Shown here: positions 3,537-24,032 of the stretch, one piece after another
How positions within the stretch are numbered: position 1 is the stretch's first letter
Layout of the letters: each line of letters begins with the position of its first letter
Virus record (IMG/VR): IMGVR_UViG_3300028048_002144
Reading direction: 5' to 3' (one strand)
Source of the DNA: a virus
Taxonomy: Duplodnaviria > Caudoviricetes
Length of the DNA stretch: 64,000 nucleotides
Notes under the pieces: generated by a model
Told to the model about the DNA's origin: nothing
The model's database searches: none
The model's input: the letters and a program-made list of their open reading frames with translations, nothing else
Made by a program: the position numbers and the translations under genes

Positions 3537-3772
3537 ATTTTTCTCCTTTCATACTTAAAAAAATCTATTTTAAATATGAATGATTTTTTACAACAAAAAA
3601 GCTAGAGATTAACTCTCTAGCTTTTATTTCTTGATTATTCAATTGTTCTTGCAAACGTTACAGCTTCTTCTTTTGTATCAAAGTAATATTTGCTTCCTAC
3701 TTCATCATCGCAAACCCATTTACCGTTCTTTAGGTAAATAAGCCATCCGTTTTCTATAATGCTATCCATTAT

Positions 3773-8996: not shown

Positions 8997-9045
8997 TGTT
9001 TTTTCTCCTGTTTTTCATTAGTCCTACTTATTTATCTATTTCTAC

Positions 9046-9264
9046 TTATTTGTCTACTCGTTCCAAATCTTTCTCATCAAAAAGAAGAAGTCCTGGTCTA
9101 AATCCTTCTGTGTGATGTTCCTTCCAAGGGTTATTCTGATCCAGTTTAACAGTTACTCTTCCTATATTGTCAGTTTTAACAATTTCTCCGACAAAGCCCT
9201 TTGTAATATAGATATCGTTTGTGATTTCTACTTTTTCGCCTGTTTTGAATTTATTATTTCTCAT
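9046..9264 (-). CDS. small SH3/KOW-like hypothetical protein
   Basis: FKTGEKVEI...GEIV pattern. Confidence 0.55.
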   Translation of the reverse strand: MRNNKFKTGEKVEITNDIYITKGFVGEIVKTDNIGRVTVKLDQNNPWKEHHTEGFRPGLLLFDEKDLERVDK

Positions 9265-9293
9265 TGTTTTAGTTCCTTTTCTAGTTCTTATTA

Positions 9294-9932
9294 TTAGTTG
9301 AGTGCATTCTTCATCTTTACAATAGTTTCATCGTATTTATTTCTTACTTTTTCTAAAATCTCTTCTACTTCAATCGGGTGATTGTCGTTAGAATCAACGC
9401 CTACATGGAACCATAGAGGGTTGATTGCTCCATTCTTGTTCATGAAATCCTCTTTCTGATGCGTATGCCCAAAAAGAGAAATTACTTCTGAACCTAGATT
9501 ATCCTTATACGGATATGGATCTACATTTGTAGGAATAGCGTACGTTTTCACTACTGGATAATGTGAGATAATGAATTTTTGCTTGTTAATAGTAATTGTA
9601 TGTGCAACATCTGGGAAAACATTAAATCCAAGTTGCTTATAGATTTTTACCTTAGTGTTAGTATCGTGATTTCCTAGAGTTACACATACATTTTTGCACT
9701 TAATTTCTTTTAATAAGCTATATACATAGTTATAAGCTTTCTTATCTCTATCTATATGCATATCTCCCATACAAATGTCTCCTAAGATGTATAGATAATC
9801 ATCTTCAGCGACCATATTGTTTATATTATCTATAATTGCACGGTCATGTTCTTTTATTGAATTAAACCCTCGCTTTTTATAGATAAATTCTTTGTTATGA
9901 TTTAGATGTAAATCACTTGTAAAAAAATTCAT
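9294..9932 (-). CDS. calcineurin-like metallophosphoesterase
   Basis: SDLH, LGD, GNHD, SHYP and GHTH motifs. Confidence 0.9.
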   Translation of the reverse strand: MNFFTSDLHLNHNKEFIYKKRGFNSIKEHDRAIIDNINNMVAEDDYLYILGDICMGDMHIDRDKKAYNYVYSLLKEIKCKNVCVTLGNHDTNTKVKIYKQLGFNVFPDVAHTITINKQKFIISHYPVVKTYAIPTNVDPYPYKDNLGSEVISLFGHTHQKEDFMNKNGAINPLWFHVGVDSNDNHPIEVEEILEKVRNKYDETIVKMKNALN

Positions 9933-10048
9933 ATAACGCTCCTCTCAGGTCTTTTTTAATTAATCAGATTTAATATGAATGATTTTTATACGAAAAAACC
10001 ACTCAGATTATTCTGAGTGGTTTTACAATTCTTATATGAACTTATAAT

Positions 10049-10260
10049 GTTATGTTTTAGATGCAAATCACTCGTAAATTGACGCACCCATTGGCTAAAA
10101 CCAATGGGATTCTTGCTTCACCGTGCGGTTGCACTATTTAGTATCTGCTTTTGTAGTACCTCATAGCGACTTACATACACTCCACAAGCGTGACTTTCCG
10201 AGCGTCCCTCGGTAGTTAATGTTTATAGGATTAATCTGCTCCGAAGCCTATTATTTCTAA
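10049..10260 (-). ncRNA. TnpB omegaRNA (reRNA) with flanking guide
   Basis: Structured region between the tnpB stop and the right end; guide is the flank at and below 10078; boundaries approximate. Confidence 0.6.
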
Positions 10261-11497
10261 TGCTTTGTCGAGAATATTATCTGCGGCATTGTTATCCCTA
10301 TCGTGATAAGCACCACAAACAGGACAAGTCCATTCTCGAACATTAAGATTCTTAACTTCTTTGTTTTGATAGCCACAATGATTACACAACTGACTTGATG
10401 CATAGAACCTCGGTACTTTGACAACTGTACTACCGTAGATTTTAGCTTTGTATTCAATCATAGTTACAAACTTTGACCAAGAAGCATCAGAGATAGACTT
10501 TGCTAATTTGTGATTACGAACCATTCCTTTTACATTAAGATCTTCGAGTGCTATCAGTTGATTTTCCTGAACAATCCTCGTTGACTCTTTCTGTAAGAAG
10601 TCATTCCTTTGGTTAGTAATATGTTCATGTATCCTTGCCACAACCTTACGTTGTTTCTGTATGTTGGAACATTCGGATAGCGGTCTATCATATATCGGAT
10701 GCCTATAACCTTTAATGATTTTGTAGCCTACGATATGACTTTCTATCATTTTGGAAAGTTTATGTTGCGCTTTAGCGAGTTTCTTCTGTGATTTTGTTAA
10801 GTACTTGTTGTTAGGGCATTTGTAACCGTTGGTATCAGAATAGAAATCTTTGATACCAAGATCAATGCCTACCATGTAACCGTTGTTGGTTACATCAGAT
10901 GTGGGCACATCTACATTCAACACACAGAAGTATTTATCACTTGGCGTTTGCTCTATGGTAGCGTTGTTTATTTTTGCAGAAGATAAGTCCATAGAAACCT
11001 TTGCCTTGACGTAGCCAAGTTTTGGCAACTTAATATGTTTGCCATCTAAAGTTACACAGATATTGTTGTTTACATTCTGTGTGCGGTAGGTTTTAAAGGT
11101 TTCCTTTTTAGACTTAAAGTGAGGGTAGCCTGCTAAATGTTTAAAGAAGTTTTTATATGCTCTATCCAAATCCTTTAGGGCTTGTTGCAAAGATATAGCG
11201 TCTACATTTTTTAGGAAAGCAAAATTATCTTCTTTCTTTAGGTTGGTCAGCATAGCATTGGTTTCTTTGTAACCAATACCAACGGAAGTAGTTTCGTAGG
11301 TTTCTTTACGCAGAGCAAGACCTTTATTGTAAACCAATCTACAACAACCAAAAGTATTCGCTATTAAGTTTTGTTGTGTTTTATTAGGATATATCCTTAT
11401 ACGAACACCTTTTAGCATACTTATTACTCCTTGTAATCTATTTCTATAATAATGCGAGTTAGTAAGTGTAAAATAGTTTTTCGCCCATGAGTAATTT
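10079..11497 (-). mobile_element. TnpB-only IS200/IS605 (IS1341-like) element
   Basis: Right end: CCCATTGG..CCAATGGG hairpin then TCAA. Left end inferred after TTAT at 11498-11501 (less certain). Confidence 0.75.
10231..11418 (-). CDS. tnpB: RNA-guided endonuclease TnpB
   Basis: HTH_OrfB N-terminus; RuvC GIDLG, EDL, DRDNNAA; CNHCG/CPVCG zinc finger. Confidence 0.95.
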
Positions 11498-11672
11498 ATA
11501 AAATCTATTGATACTAATTATTTTTTCTCTTTTTCTTTATCACTTTCTTTTTCTTCCTTGTTTCTATCTTTTTTCTCTAAGCATACTTTATCATCACAAT
11601 CTTCACAAAACATATACGTGACTTTGTGATCTACTATAGGGCAATATTTACTCATGTTCATGCCTTTCTAAA

Positions 11673-11993
11673 TTAAATTGTCCATATTTTTAAAACTGTT
11701 AAACTAAGTAAAATTTGGGCAAAGTATATAACATCTTTACAGTTTTTTACTTTATAATGGCTATTAGTTATAGCATTTACTATGTTAACTAGACATTTTT
11801 GCACTTCTGGAATTCCTAAAGATGCAATTGCAATAATCACTGCGACAAATATTACCATTCCTAGCGCATATTCTGAACAATATGGTGAGTCATAATTTTT
11901 CACAGCGTTTAAAAAATTTATTGCAAAACTCATAGAAATTAGTAAACACGTTGAACATAAGATTACTCTTGACATCATTTCCATCATAAACAT
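11673..11993 (-). CDS. membrane protein
   Basis: Hydrophobic segments. Confidence 0.55.
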   Translation of the reverse strand: MFMMEMMSRVILCSTCLLISMSFAINFLNAVKNYDSPYCSEYALGMVIFVAVIIAIASLGIPEVQKCLVNIVNAITNSHYKVKNCKDVIYFAQILLSLTVLKIWTI

Positions 11994-22682: not shown

Positions 22683-24032
22683 ATTGCTCCGACTTTTATA
22701 AGTCGGAGCTTCTTGCTTCAACCATTACTGCATTCCTAACAAGTTACCTTGTCGGCTCGTCTTACACAATGTCCACAAGCGTATAAGTTCGGGCTATTCC
22801 ATCCCTACTATAATATTTAGTTCTAATCTACTTCAGCCAGTAGTCGTAATCCTTCGTTTAGGATATTGATAGCTGCGTTTTGATCACGATCCATCGTAAG
22901 ACCACAATCGCATACCATTTTACGGATGGTTAAGTCTCTCATTTCTGGATGTTTTGTTCCACAACAATGACAAATTTGTGATGACGGGAACCACTTATCT
23001 ACTTTTACAAGATATTTGTTTCTTTCTGATAACTTATATTCAAGCATCGACAGAAACATACCATAACCGTTATCCAGAGTAGCTTTACCGTTCCCAAATC
23101 CTTTATTAGACATAGCTTGCATGTTTAAGGATTCCACACATACAACATCATACCGATTGGCTATCTCAGTAGATATCTTATGCAGATTATCCAGACGCTG
23201 ATTAGCAATATGTCTATGGATTTTGTTTACTTTACGGAGTTGTTTTATATAATTTTTGGACTTTACCTCGTGTTTTTTAGATCCTTGCATGCGGGATAGC
23301 CTACGCTGTGCTTTGGCAAGTTTATCATGACTCTCACGATAATATTTGTGATTAGTTCCTACGTTACCGTTGCTATCCACATATAAGCCATTAGAAGCGT
23401 AGTCTAATCCGATAGCATTGGTCTTATCTGCTACATAAAGATTTGTTATATTCGCAAACTCAAAAAGAATAGAAATATAATATTTGCCATCTGATTCTTG
23501 TGATACGGTAGCGGATTTAATAATCCAATCGCTATCAGGAATACGATGGATAACTGCTTTTACCTTACCAATCTTAGGAAGCTTGATATATTTATTCTCT
23601 ATGATAGCAACAGTGCCTTTTTGATTATTAGTAGTATAGGACTTTCGGCTATGTTTTGCAGACTTGAATTTAGGGAATCCGTTTTTCTTTTTGCGGGATT
23701 TACTAAATGCATTGCGAAATGCTTCCTGTAAATCCATTTGCTTATTAGCAAGAGCTAGACTATCCACTTCTTTGAGATAAGGATAATCTTTTTTGTATTT
23801 AGCAGGTGTAACAGTAGGGAACTTGCCAGTAGCCTTGTAACCTTCAATTTTATCGGAAAGCATAAGATTCCAGACCTTACGACAACAGCCAAAGGTTTTA
23901 GCAAACATAACAGATTGTTCAGTTGTCGGATATATTCTGTACTTAATTGCTCTATTCATTAACTACCTCATGCGATTCATTTTATCGCCTATACTGTGCT
24001 TATTGGTGAGGAAATCTCGTCCACGGTGACTC
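22679..24032 (-). mobile_element. TnpB-only IS200/IS605 element inserted after TTAT
   Basis: Right end: GCTCCGACTT..AAGTCGGAGC hairpin then TTCAC. Removing 22679-24032 gives a TAA stop in frame with the plus-strand ORF. Confidence 0.75.
22823..23959 (-). CDS. tnpB: RNA-guided endonuclease TnpB
   Basis: HTH_OrfB; RuvC GLDY, VES, DRDQNAA; zinc finger. Confidence 0.95.
   Translation of the reverse strand: MNRAIKYRIYPTTEQSVMFAKTFGCCRKVWNLMLSDKIEGYKATGKFPTVTPAKYKKDYPYLKEVDSLALANKQMDLQEAFRNAFSKSRKKKNGFPKFKSAKHSRKSYTTNNQKGTVAIIENKYIKLPKIGKVKAVIHRIPDSDWIIKSATVSQESDGKYYISILFEFANITNLYVADKTNAIGLDYASNGLYVDSNGNVGTNHKYYRESHDKLAKAQRRLSRMQGSKKHEVKSKNYIKQLRKVNKIHRHIANQRLDNLHKISTEIANRYDVVCVESLNMQAMSNKGFGNGKATLDNGYGMFLSMLEYKLSERNKYLVKVDKWFPSSQICHCCGTKHPEMRDLTIRKMVCDCGLTMDRDQNAAINILNEGLRLLAEVD

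Follow-up and report, generated by a model that had tools for sequence, protein, structure and literature searches.

Organization of the locus

The DNA analyzed here is a 64,000-nt stretch of IMG/VR virus record IMGVR_UViG_3300028048_002144 (Duplodnaviria; Caudoviricetes), hereafter referred to as the window. It contains an insertion sequence (IS) of the IS200/IS605 family, which encodes the RNA-guided nuclease TnpB, followed closely by a gene for a calcineurin-like phosphoesterase. The DNA that flanks the right end of the element, and that is predicted to provide the guide part of the TnpB omegaRNA, is a near-copy of the beginning of this resident phosphoesterase gene; the origin and the possible consequences of this likeness are considered below. 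All genes treated at the locus are on the minus strand. The features of the locus are as follows, in the order of transcription:

11498..11503, minus strand: TTTTAT target site and target-adjacent motif (TAM), which borders the left end of the element on its 5′ side; its core, TTAT, occupies 11501-11498
10079..11497, minus strand: IS200/IS605-family element of 1419 nt, without tnpA, an internal-deletion derivative; ends set by comparison with relatives
11476..11497, minus strand: left-end remnant, the first ~22 nt, AAATTACTCATGGGCGAAAAAC; the hairpin that comes next in relatives, CCCATTAGCTTTAGCTGATGGG, is missing
11424..11474, minus strand: remnant of an XRE-type helix-turn-helix (HTH) gene, the last 17 codons including the stop, from alignment with relatives L001, L012 and L014
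10231..11418, minus strand: tnpB, 395 aa, RuvC residues D186/E292/D375 and zinc finger CNHCG…CPVCG, from Pfam and the match to ISDra2
10079..10313, minus strand: omegaRNA scaffold, starting in the 3′ part of tnpB and reaching to the right end, with a hairpin at 10087-10108, from a consensus fold
10049..10078, minus strand: phosphoesterase stub, which is also the predicted guide, 30 nt, the first 16 being TTTACGAGTGATTTGC
9968..10048, minus strand: junction module with three parts: flank (24 nt), terminator (10024-9995) and promoter-like core (9990-9970, ATAAAAATCATTCATATTAAA); copy of the module that follows the gene for the single-stranded DNA-binding protein (SSB)
9933..9967, minus strand: gene-specific leader with a ribosome-binding site (RBS), GAGAGGAG, at 9946-9939; single copy in 85 kb
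9294..9932, minus strand: resident calcineurin-like phosphoesterase, 212 aa, Pfam Metallophos / Metallophos_2

The window is part of a 205,255-bp contig from a bovine gut (rumen) metagenome with a G+C content of 29–36%. The contig is transcribed almost wholly in one direction and carries genes for a primase, a ligase, an SSB and similar phage replication proteins; the phage would appear to be of a large, lytic type. The part of its genome covered here amounts to 85 kb, the window and 21 kb beyond it. The genome is organized as ~30 terminator-promoter-RBS cassettes, and junction modules have been copied between loci. A megablast search of 50,697 phage records gave no matches for positions 9000-11700, and a single 80% patch was the only match for positions 12000-36000.

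Ends of the element and its target site

The ends of the element were set by comparison with relatives L001, L012, L014, L015, L018 and others, which were drawn from IMG/VR, ENA, Logan and one Eubacterium metagenome-assembled genome (MAG). The left end starts with AAATTACTCA… and has TTAT immediately 5′ of it; in the relatives it starts with AAAT(T/G)(A/G)C… or ATTAAGG…. The right ends of 13 independent junctions consist of a hairpin, CCCATTGG…CCAATGGG, followed by T(G/A)(C/T/G)(G/T)TCAA, after which the sequences diverge completely, the next base being T, A or G. Since all 13 diverge after TCAA, the right end (…GTCAA) lies at 10079 and the flank starts at 10078, in agreement with the initial annotation. 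A right end at TCAAT was considered and rejected, because the base after TCAA is A in 5 of the 13 junctions and G in one.

In ISDra2, the TAM of TnpB is the target site of the transposon, and ~16 nt of the flank serve as the guide (PMC8612924). TTAT precedes the left end in all eight independent insertions of related elements, and in seven of them the longer TTTAT is found. TTAT, which had been proposed as the TAM from the window itself, is thus a well-supported prediction for the TnpB of this element. A join of ATGGGCGAAAAACTATTTTAC to the flank, read as a reconstituted open reading frame (ORF) with a TTAC TAM, was also considered. It was rejected after comparison with full-length relatives: the ATG of this join falls inside the left end, and the true junction is TTTTAT/AAATTAC (here and below, a slash between two runs of nucleotides or residues marks the insertion point).

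The same right-end hairpin and an …ACGTCAA end were seen in a further group of viral contigs (L019-L022, L024-L026). What precedes the hairpin in these contigs (…CAAACTTCTT…) does not resemble the omegaRNA scaffold of the element, which suggests that end modules may be shared between different element families.

The element has lost its left-end hairpin

The full-length relative L001 is 1685 nt long. In L001, L012, L014 and L018 the first ~22 nt of the left end are followed by the hairpin CCCATTAGCTTTAGCTGATGGG, a TTGACA/TATAAT-type promoter, an HTH gene and tnpB, in that order. In the window copy ~266 nt comprising the left-end hairpin, the promoter and most of the HTH gene are deleted, with the join at ~11476/11475. 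In L001 an 8-nt repeat, AACCCATT, marks each border of the stretch that is deleted here, and the deletion may thus have been mediated by microhomology.

The HTH genes of the relatives encode proteins of 57–58 aa that match PF12844 or PF01381, and end with a stop codon 3 nt before the start of tnpB (coordinates 2822-2998 in L001, 267-443 in L012 and 1278-1451 in L014). The HTH protein may be an element-encoded regulator, comparable with the Arc protein reported for IS605 elements (bioRxiv 10.64898/2026.09.24.754181). Two other relatives, L015 and L016, are without an HTH gene.

No tnpA was found in the element or in the full-length relatives L001, L012 and L014, which carry the HTH gene and tnpB only; the rest of the phage genome was not searched for it. 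Of the two subterminal hairpins, the right-end one (10087-10108) is present and the left-end one is deleted. With this hairpin lost and without tnpA, peel-and-paste transposition can neither excise the copy nor re-insert it, and ‘restorative’ homing, which follows excision, does not apply to it. The full-length relative L018 resides in the MAG of a rumen Eubacterium sp. (contig JAILQM010000134.1) and encodes a TnpB with 92% identity to that of the window, which hints at the kind of host that supplied the element to the phage.

TnpB and its omegaRNA

The TnpB protein matches the Pfam families HTH_OrfB_IS605, OrfB_IS605 (RuvC) and Cas12f1-like_TNB with E-values of 2e-19, 6e-21 and 1e-23, all above the curated cut-offs, and the ISDra2 TnpB structures 8exa/8h1j with an E-value of 7e-80. 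Residues D186, E292 and D375 align to D191, E278 and D361 of ISDra2, so that the RuvC triad, reported as intact in the initial annotation, is indeed complete. At 395 aa the protein is as long as its relatives, and it is 92–93% identical to copies in ordinary elements. Thirteen substitutions are private to it, three of them at otherwise invariant columns. On its own branch, which includes the time before insertion, tnpB has 22 non-synonymous and 40 synonymous private changes, corresponding to a ratio of non-synonymous to synonymous substitution rates (dN/dS) of ~0.14; judged by these changes, the gene is evidently not decaying.

A consensus fold of the scaffold built with eight relatives contains 52 pairs, 16 of which show compensatory changes. 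A match to Rfam RAGATH-18 at 10110-10188 is sub-threshold (24.8 bits, compared to a gathering score of 44.9). By its domains, catalytic triad, covarying scaffold and TAM motif, the protein of the element is to all appearances an ISDra2-like TnpB of the IS200/IS605 family. Its gene lies at the end of a phage operon, and the terminator at 10024-9995 comes only after the guide; tnpB and the omegaRNA scaffold are therefore probably transcribed by read-through. A 212-nt contig identical to 10239-10450 is present in a bovine-gut metatranscriptome library (run X3) and represents either a transcript or carried-over DNA.

The predicted guide is a near-copy of the start of the phosphoesterase gene

The 30-nt stub (10078-10049) and codons 4–13 of the resident phosphoesterase gene (9923-9894) are identical at 27 of 30 positions (90.0%). 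A repeat finder identified the same pair as a 31-nt direct repeat, 10048-10078 versus 9893-9923, with 28/31 identities (90%) in the same orientation and 155 nt apart. Apart from this pair, the best ungapped matches of the 30-mer in the window reach 18/30 on its own strand and 20/30 on the opposite one. The likeness was first noted in the initial annotation, and both its extent and the position of its mismatches were reproduced here. In the stub and the resident gene, respectively, the differing codons are ACG and ACA, TTG and TTA, AAA and AAT; all three differences are at third-codon positions, two of them being synonymous and one a K to N change. Counted from the right end of the element, the mismatches are at guide positions 6, 15 and 24.

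That the likeness arose by chance is scarcely credible. The AT-richness of the DNA is all that speaks for it, as opposed to 27/30 identities where no other place in 128 kb (both strands) exceeds 20/30, the same orientation, a distance of 155 nt, a common reading frame and a location in a conserved motif. Proteins of this phosphoesterase family start with M-I-Y-F-T-S-D-L-H-L-x-H, and the repeat spans metal-binding motif I. The resident protein has every metallophosphoesterase motif, and its nearest full-length homologue is 41% identical. A second Metallophos gene of the phage, ~5 kb before the start of the window (L121, 15846-16667), encodes a 273-aa protein whose N-terminus, MKVLVIPDIHLKP, is unrelated to that of the resident phosphoesterase.

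JGI metagenomes were scanned with TTTACNAGTGATTTNCATCT, giving 93 stretches preselected for an 18/20 match to the first 20 positions of the stub. Many of these were true phosphoesterase starts (M-I-Y/FTSDLHL…). The best of them matched the stub at 25/30 positions, compared to 27/30 for the resident gene, and the tail CTAAA(A/T)CATAAC was common to the stub and the resident gene only. On both counts the stub derives from the gene lineage of the resident phosphoesterase and not from a distant homologue. Beyond the 30- or 31-mer the likeness is at background level, as judged against random phage windows (p ~0.54 for the left flanks and p ~0.62 for the right flanks).

The resident gene begins with ATG AAT TTT/TTT ACA, the slash marking the place that corresponds to the insertion point. 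At the position of the TAM (9927-9924) it therefore reads TTTT, as had been stated before. ISDra2 TnpB requires its TAM, and double mismatches within guide positions 1–12 abolish cutting (PMC8612924, PMC10097598). With TTTT in place of the TAM and a mismatch at guide position 6, within the 12-nt seed, the resident copy should be safe from the TnpB of the element, if the latter behaves as ISDra2 TnpB does.

The same observations bear on RNA-guided repression, in which TnpB would bind the resident phosphoesterase gene without cutting it, in the manner of the TldR proteins. Immobilised phage-borne TnpB relatives with fixed guides are known repressors (bioRxiv 10.1101/2023.11.30.569447), and here the gene next to the element has its match to the guide in its 5′ part. 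We nevertheless hold this to be very improbable: TnpB retains its RuvC triad, is not truncated and is 92–93% identical to copies in ordinary elements, and the resident site has no TAM, carries the seed mismatch and lies inside the ORF rather than in a promoter.

A duplicated junction module separates the stub from the resident gene

The 81 nt between the stub and the leader of the resident gene contain a strong terminator and a promoter-like core of 21 nt. This module begins immediately after the stub and is identical at 70 of 77 positions (90.9%) to a module that directly follows the SSB stop codon, 19 kb before the start of the window (L123, 4612-4688). The terminator stems of the two copies differ by A/G changes. 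The stub ends with CATAAC and the SSB gene with GCATAAG, so the stub is joined to the module on a 5-nt microhomology, CATAA. The join has the look of one made by illegitimate recombination or a template switch. Sequences downstream of the promoter core are different at the two module loci, the resident gene having its own leader and RBS; no second copy of the leader and start of this gene was found in the 85 kb.

The stub differs from the gene as much as the module differs from its sister module (90.0% and 90.9% identity), which is compatible with, though no proof of, a single rearrangement having made both duplications. The initial annotation suggested that the gene might have been rescued after insertion by a re-promoted, escape-mutated copy. 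The first part of this proposal gains some support, as the resident gene is driven by a module 91% like that after the SSB gene. The second part does not, because third-position mismatches are normal for diverged coding copies and so provide no evidence of a selected ‘escape’.

On the other side of the element, a 47-aa upstream ORF (geneX) ends with a stop codon at 11518, 20 nt from the element. The left flank is not significantly like the start of the module (p ~0.08). When the two flanks of the element are joined, the frame reads …N-R-F-Y/F-T-S-D-L-H-L-K-H-N, with TTT TAT/TTT ACG AGT GAT coding for F-Y/F-T-S-D, and F-Y fits the I-Y or I-W of the family.

A probable insertion scar beside a second phosphoesterase copy

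We consider that the locus is probably the scar, or fossil, of an old IS200/IS605 insertion into a copy of the phosphoesterase gene, with an intact second copy adjoining. The guide of TnpB is whatever DNA follows the right end of the element, and on this account it resembles the phosphoesterase gene by descent and not by acquisition.

The order of events that we infer is the following. An ISDra2-like, TnpB-only element that targets TTAT or TTTAT would have inserted at the 5′ end of a phosphoesterase copy in the ~205-kb rumen phage. The insertion point would have been TTTTAT/TTTACGAGTG…, in frame Phe-Tyr/Phe-Thr-Ser-Asp, that is, in the conserved metal-binding motif I. The disrupted copy would later have been cut down to the 30-nt stub, which became joined through the CATAA microhomology to the duplicated terminator-promoter module. 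A further deletion would have taken ~266 nt from within the element, with loss of its mobility. The intact copy lies 155 nt downstream, with its own terminator-promoter-RBS cassette. The TnpB-omegaRNA complex, if made, should spare this resident copy; any target would be an IS-less allele with TTAT and TTTACGAGTGATTTGC in a related phage, and its cleavage would amount to ordinary TnpB homing or drive. Natural phosphoesterase starts with TTTAT/TTTAC… do exist, for example in L076.

The two copies could have arisen in three ways: from a tandem paralogue followed by deletions, by allele replacement from a related phage through illegitimate recombination, or through a template switch during repair, with duplication of the 5′ end. 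A search for identical proteins retrieved the same phage only, from three assemblies; each of these carries the IS, and they do not differ over 850 nt. Among Logan contigs from four runs none bridges an IS-less site; this is uninformative, as such contigs break inside the IS where relatives of 85–93% identity co-occur.

Several observations weigh against an insertion scar. On either side of the 30-mer the likeness breaks off abruptly, which is the picture of recombination joints and unlike that of a decaying pseudogene. The 20-nt stretch to the left of the element is devoid of an RBS and of a start codon in the frame of the stub, and is not significantly like the leader of the resident gene. 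If the element had simply inserted into a functional gene here, at least one further deletion or a different 5′ context would thus be needed. The F-Y fit of the joined flanks is weak, since T-rich and AT-rich DNA readily translates to F, I, L and Y. The specificity of the TAM is deduced from insertion sites. Neither an IS-less relative nor a full-length allele of the stub type is present in any collection searched, so that the ancestral state is unobserved.

Some of these points fit a different history, which we judge improbable: a short phosphoesterase-like remnant would already have lain in the spacer that separates geneX from the junction module, and the IS landed later at a TTAT on its edge, the two sharing their place by coincidence. 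The match of the guide would then be linked neither in function nor in history to the disruption of a gene. A genome of ~30 shuffled cassettes with modules copied between loci could harbor such a remnant, the left side of the element has no RBS or start codon, and the homology is confined to 30 nt. However, the edge of the homology coincides with the insertion point to the nucleotide, and the joined flanks carry the family motif on in frame (F-Y/F-T-S-D), as if the IS had split a coding sequence. The origin of the remnant itself would also be left unexplained.

Possible action against co-infecting phages

The insertion scar could have acquired a function. In a reading that adds to the insertion history and does not replace it, the immobilised TnpB-omegaRNA complex would act on related phages in the same cell, cleaving those of their phosphoesterase alleles that carry TTAT within the region of motif I, and the locus would be a selected cleave-and-rescue, or intronless-homing, cassette. 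Homing against this locus in competing elements was the alternative to rescue in the initial annotation. The linked resident gene, which lacks the TAM and would be wobble-recoded and newly promoted, would protect and complement the carrier. Repair of the break would spread the block of TnpB and resistant gene, or else the competitor would be destroyed, and the cassette would be kept by the phage or selfishly. We regard this as unlikely, though a number of features of the locus are in its favor.

The tnpB gene is intact, with a dN/dS of ~0.14, despite the immobility of the element; however, the low value may date from bacterial IS lineages before the insertion. The deletions spared tnpB, the scaffold and the guide, the internal one having removed the promoter and the HTH gene, and tnpB lies within a phage operon with a terminator only past the guide. 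No coding stretch of the family is more conserved than the one on which the guide falls, and TTAT/TTTAC is found in natural alleles. Yet a sensitive allele, with TTAT and a perfect match over 12–16 nt, was not found in IMG/VR or in JGI metagenomes: the best one, in L076, has TTTAT and 15/16 matches with the mismatch at seed position 6, and a scan of IMG/VR with the 30-mer carrying N at the three variable positions gave no matches. The nearby copy of the guide is unique to this one of 14 related junctions, no duplication of the guide being found at the 13 others. The wobble differences between guide and resident gene, on the other hand, are usual between any diverged coding copies.

Precedents exist for both the layout and the mechanism. 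In layout the locus corresponds to the free-standing Seg and Mob endonucleases of T4, where the nuclease gene stands beside its target gene and the phage's own allele is resistant (PMC13565253). TnpB drives its IS through plasmid populations without TnpA (PMC11870625). ‘Non-restorative homing’ of a transposon into co-infecting phages has been put forward in a review as a theoretical possibility (PMC13565253).

Relation to known systems

The closest counterpart of the element is ISDra2 with its TnpB-omegaRNA. The two have the same domains, with a D/E/D triad and a zinc finger (PMC8612924, PMC10097598, bioRxiv 10.1101/2023.03.14.532601). In both, the scaffold takes in the 3′ end of tnpB as well as the right end, the flank that follows …TCAA serves as the guide and the target motif doubles as the TAM. 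They differ in the TAM, TTAT or TTTAT here and TTGAT in ISDra2, in the absence of tnpA here and in the XRE-type HTH gene of the relatives. Unlike ISDra2, this copy has no left-end hairpin, resides in a giant phage of lytic type and has a second, TAM-less copy of its target gene alongside.

With the T-even homing endonucleases SegF, SegB and Mob (PMC2330249; PMC13565253) the locus shares a nuclease gene placed between phage genes, beside the conserved gene that holds its (here predicted) target, and an allele of the phage's own that differs at the site (here TTTT instead of TTAT, with mismatches at positions 6, 15 and 24). Recognition here would be RNA-guided, in contrast to these enzymes. In the TnpB gene drive of multicopy plasmids (PMC11870625), IS-less copies are eliminated or converted without TnpA in a population of multicopy replicons, as they would be here. 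That drive is, however, experimental, with the IS inside the target, whereas here the target gene would also have a linked copy that cannot be cut. The TldR repressors of prophages (bioRxiv 10.1101/2023.11.30.569447; PMC13418256) are phage-borne, immobilised TnpB derivatives with the guide fixed on one gene, as here. They have lost RuvC residues and target TAM-bearing promoters, while in the present case RuvC is intact and the neighboring gene has no TAM.

What TnpB is known for is the restoration or drive of its own transposon, through cleavage of empty sites. Its use between co-infecting phages has so far been a theoretical proposal only. Synthetic Cleave-and-Rescue (ClvR) drives, engineered in insects, combine an RNA-guided nuclease with a tightly linked, recoded and uncleavable copy of the target gene; a natural microbial counterpart at this locus is a hypothesis only. 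The locus holds three parts for such a system: an intact, non-transposing nuclease with its scaffold, a guide fixed on the start of a conserved gene, and a linked copy that is predicted to escape cutting. Were the locus active, it would be the equivalent, with RNA guidance, of the marker exclusion by Seg and Mob of T4 and a natural analogue of the engineered drives, and would represent a step from a selfish transposon nuclease towards a domesticated effector with a fixed guide. If inactive, it is a well-delimited example of how IS insertion, microhomology joins and the copying of junction modules remodel a cassette-built phage genome. In either case the locus supplies a predicted TAM, TTAT or TTTAT, for a compact clade of ISDra2-like TnpB proteins.

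Other features of the phage genome

A second tnpB gene of the same phage is located at 22823-23959 on the minus strand, after a gene for a 483-aa ATPase-like protein. It encodes a protein of 378 aa that is 34% identical to the first TnpB and is followed by a scaffold-like region that extends to about 22690. The downstream flank of this gene has no duplicate in the 85 kb of the phage genome.

The promoter-like motif of the junction module, 16–21 nt long and reading ATAAAAATCATTCATATTAAA on the minus strand, occurs in ~20 copies in the window, all in one orientation, in intergenic positions and after terminators. Besides 9970-9990, examples are found at 3573, 6520, 7224, 19611, 29547, 31191, 33795, 36592, 41618, 48850 and 62487. 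By its distribution, the motif looks like a phage-specific promoter that marks gene cassettes.

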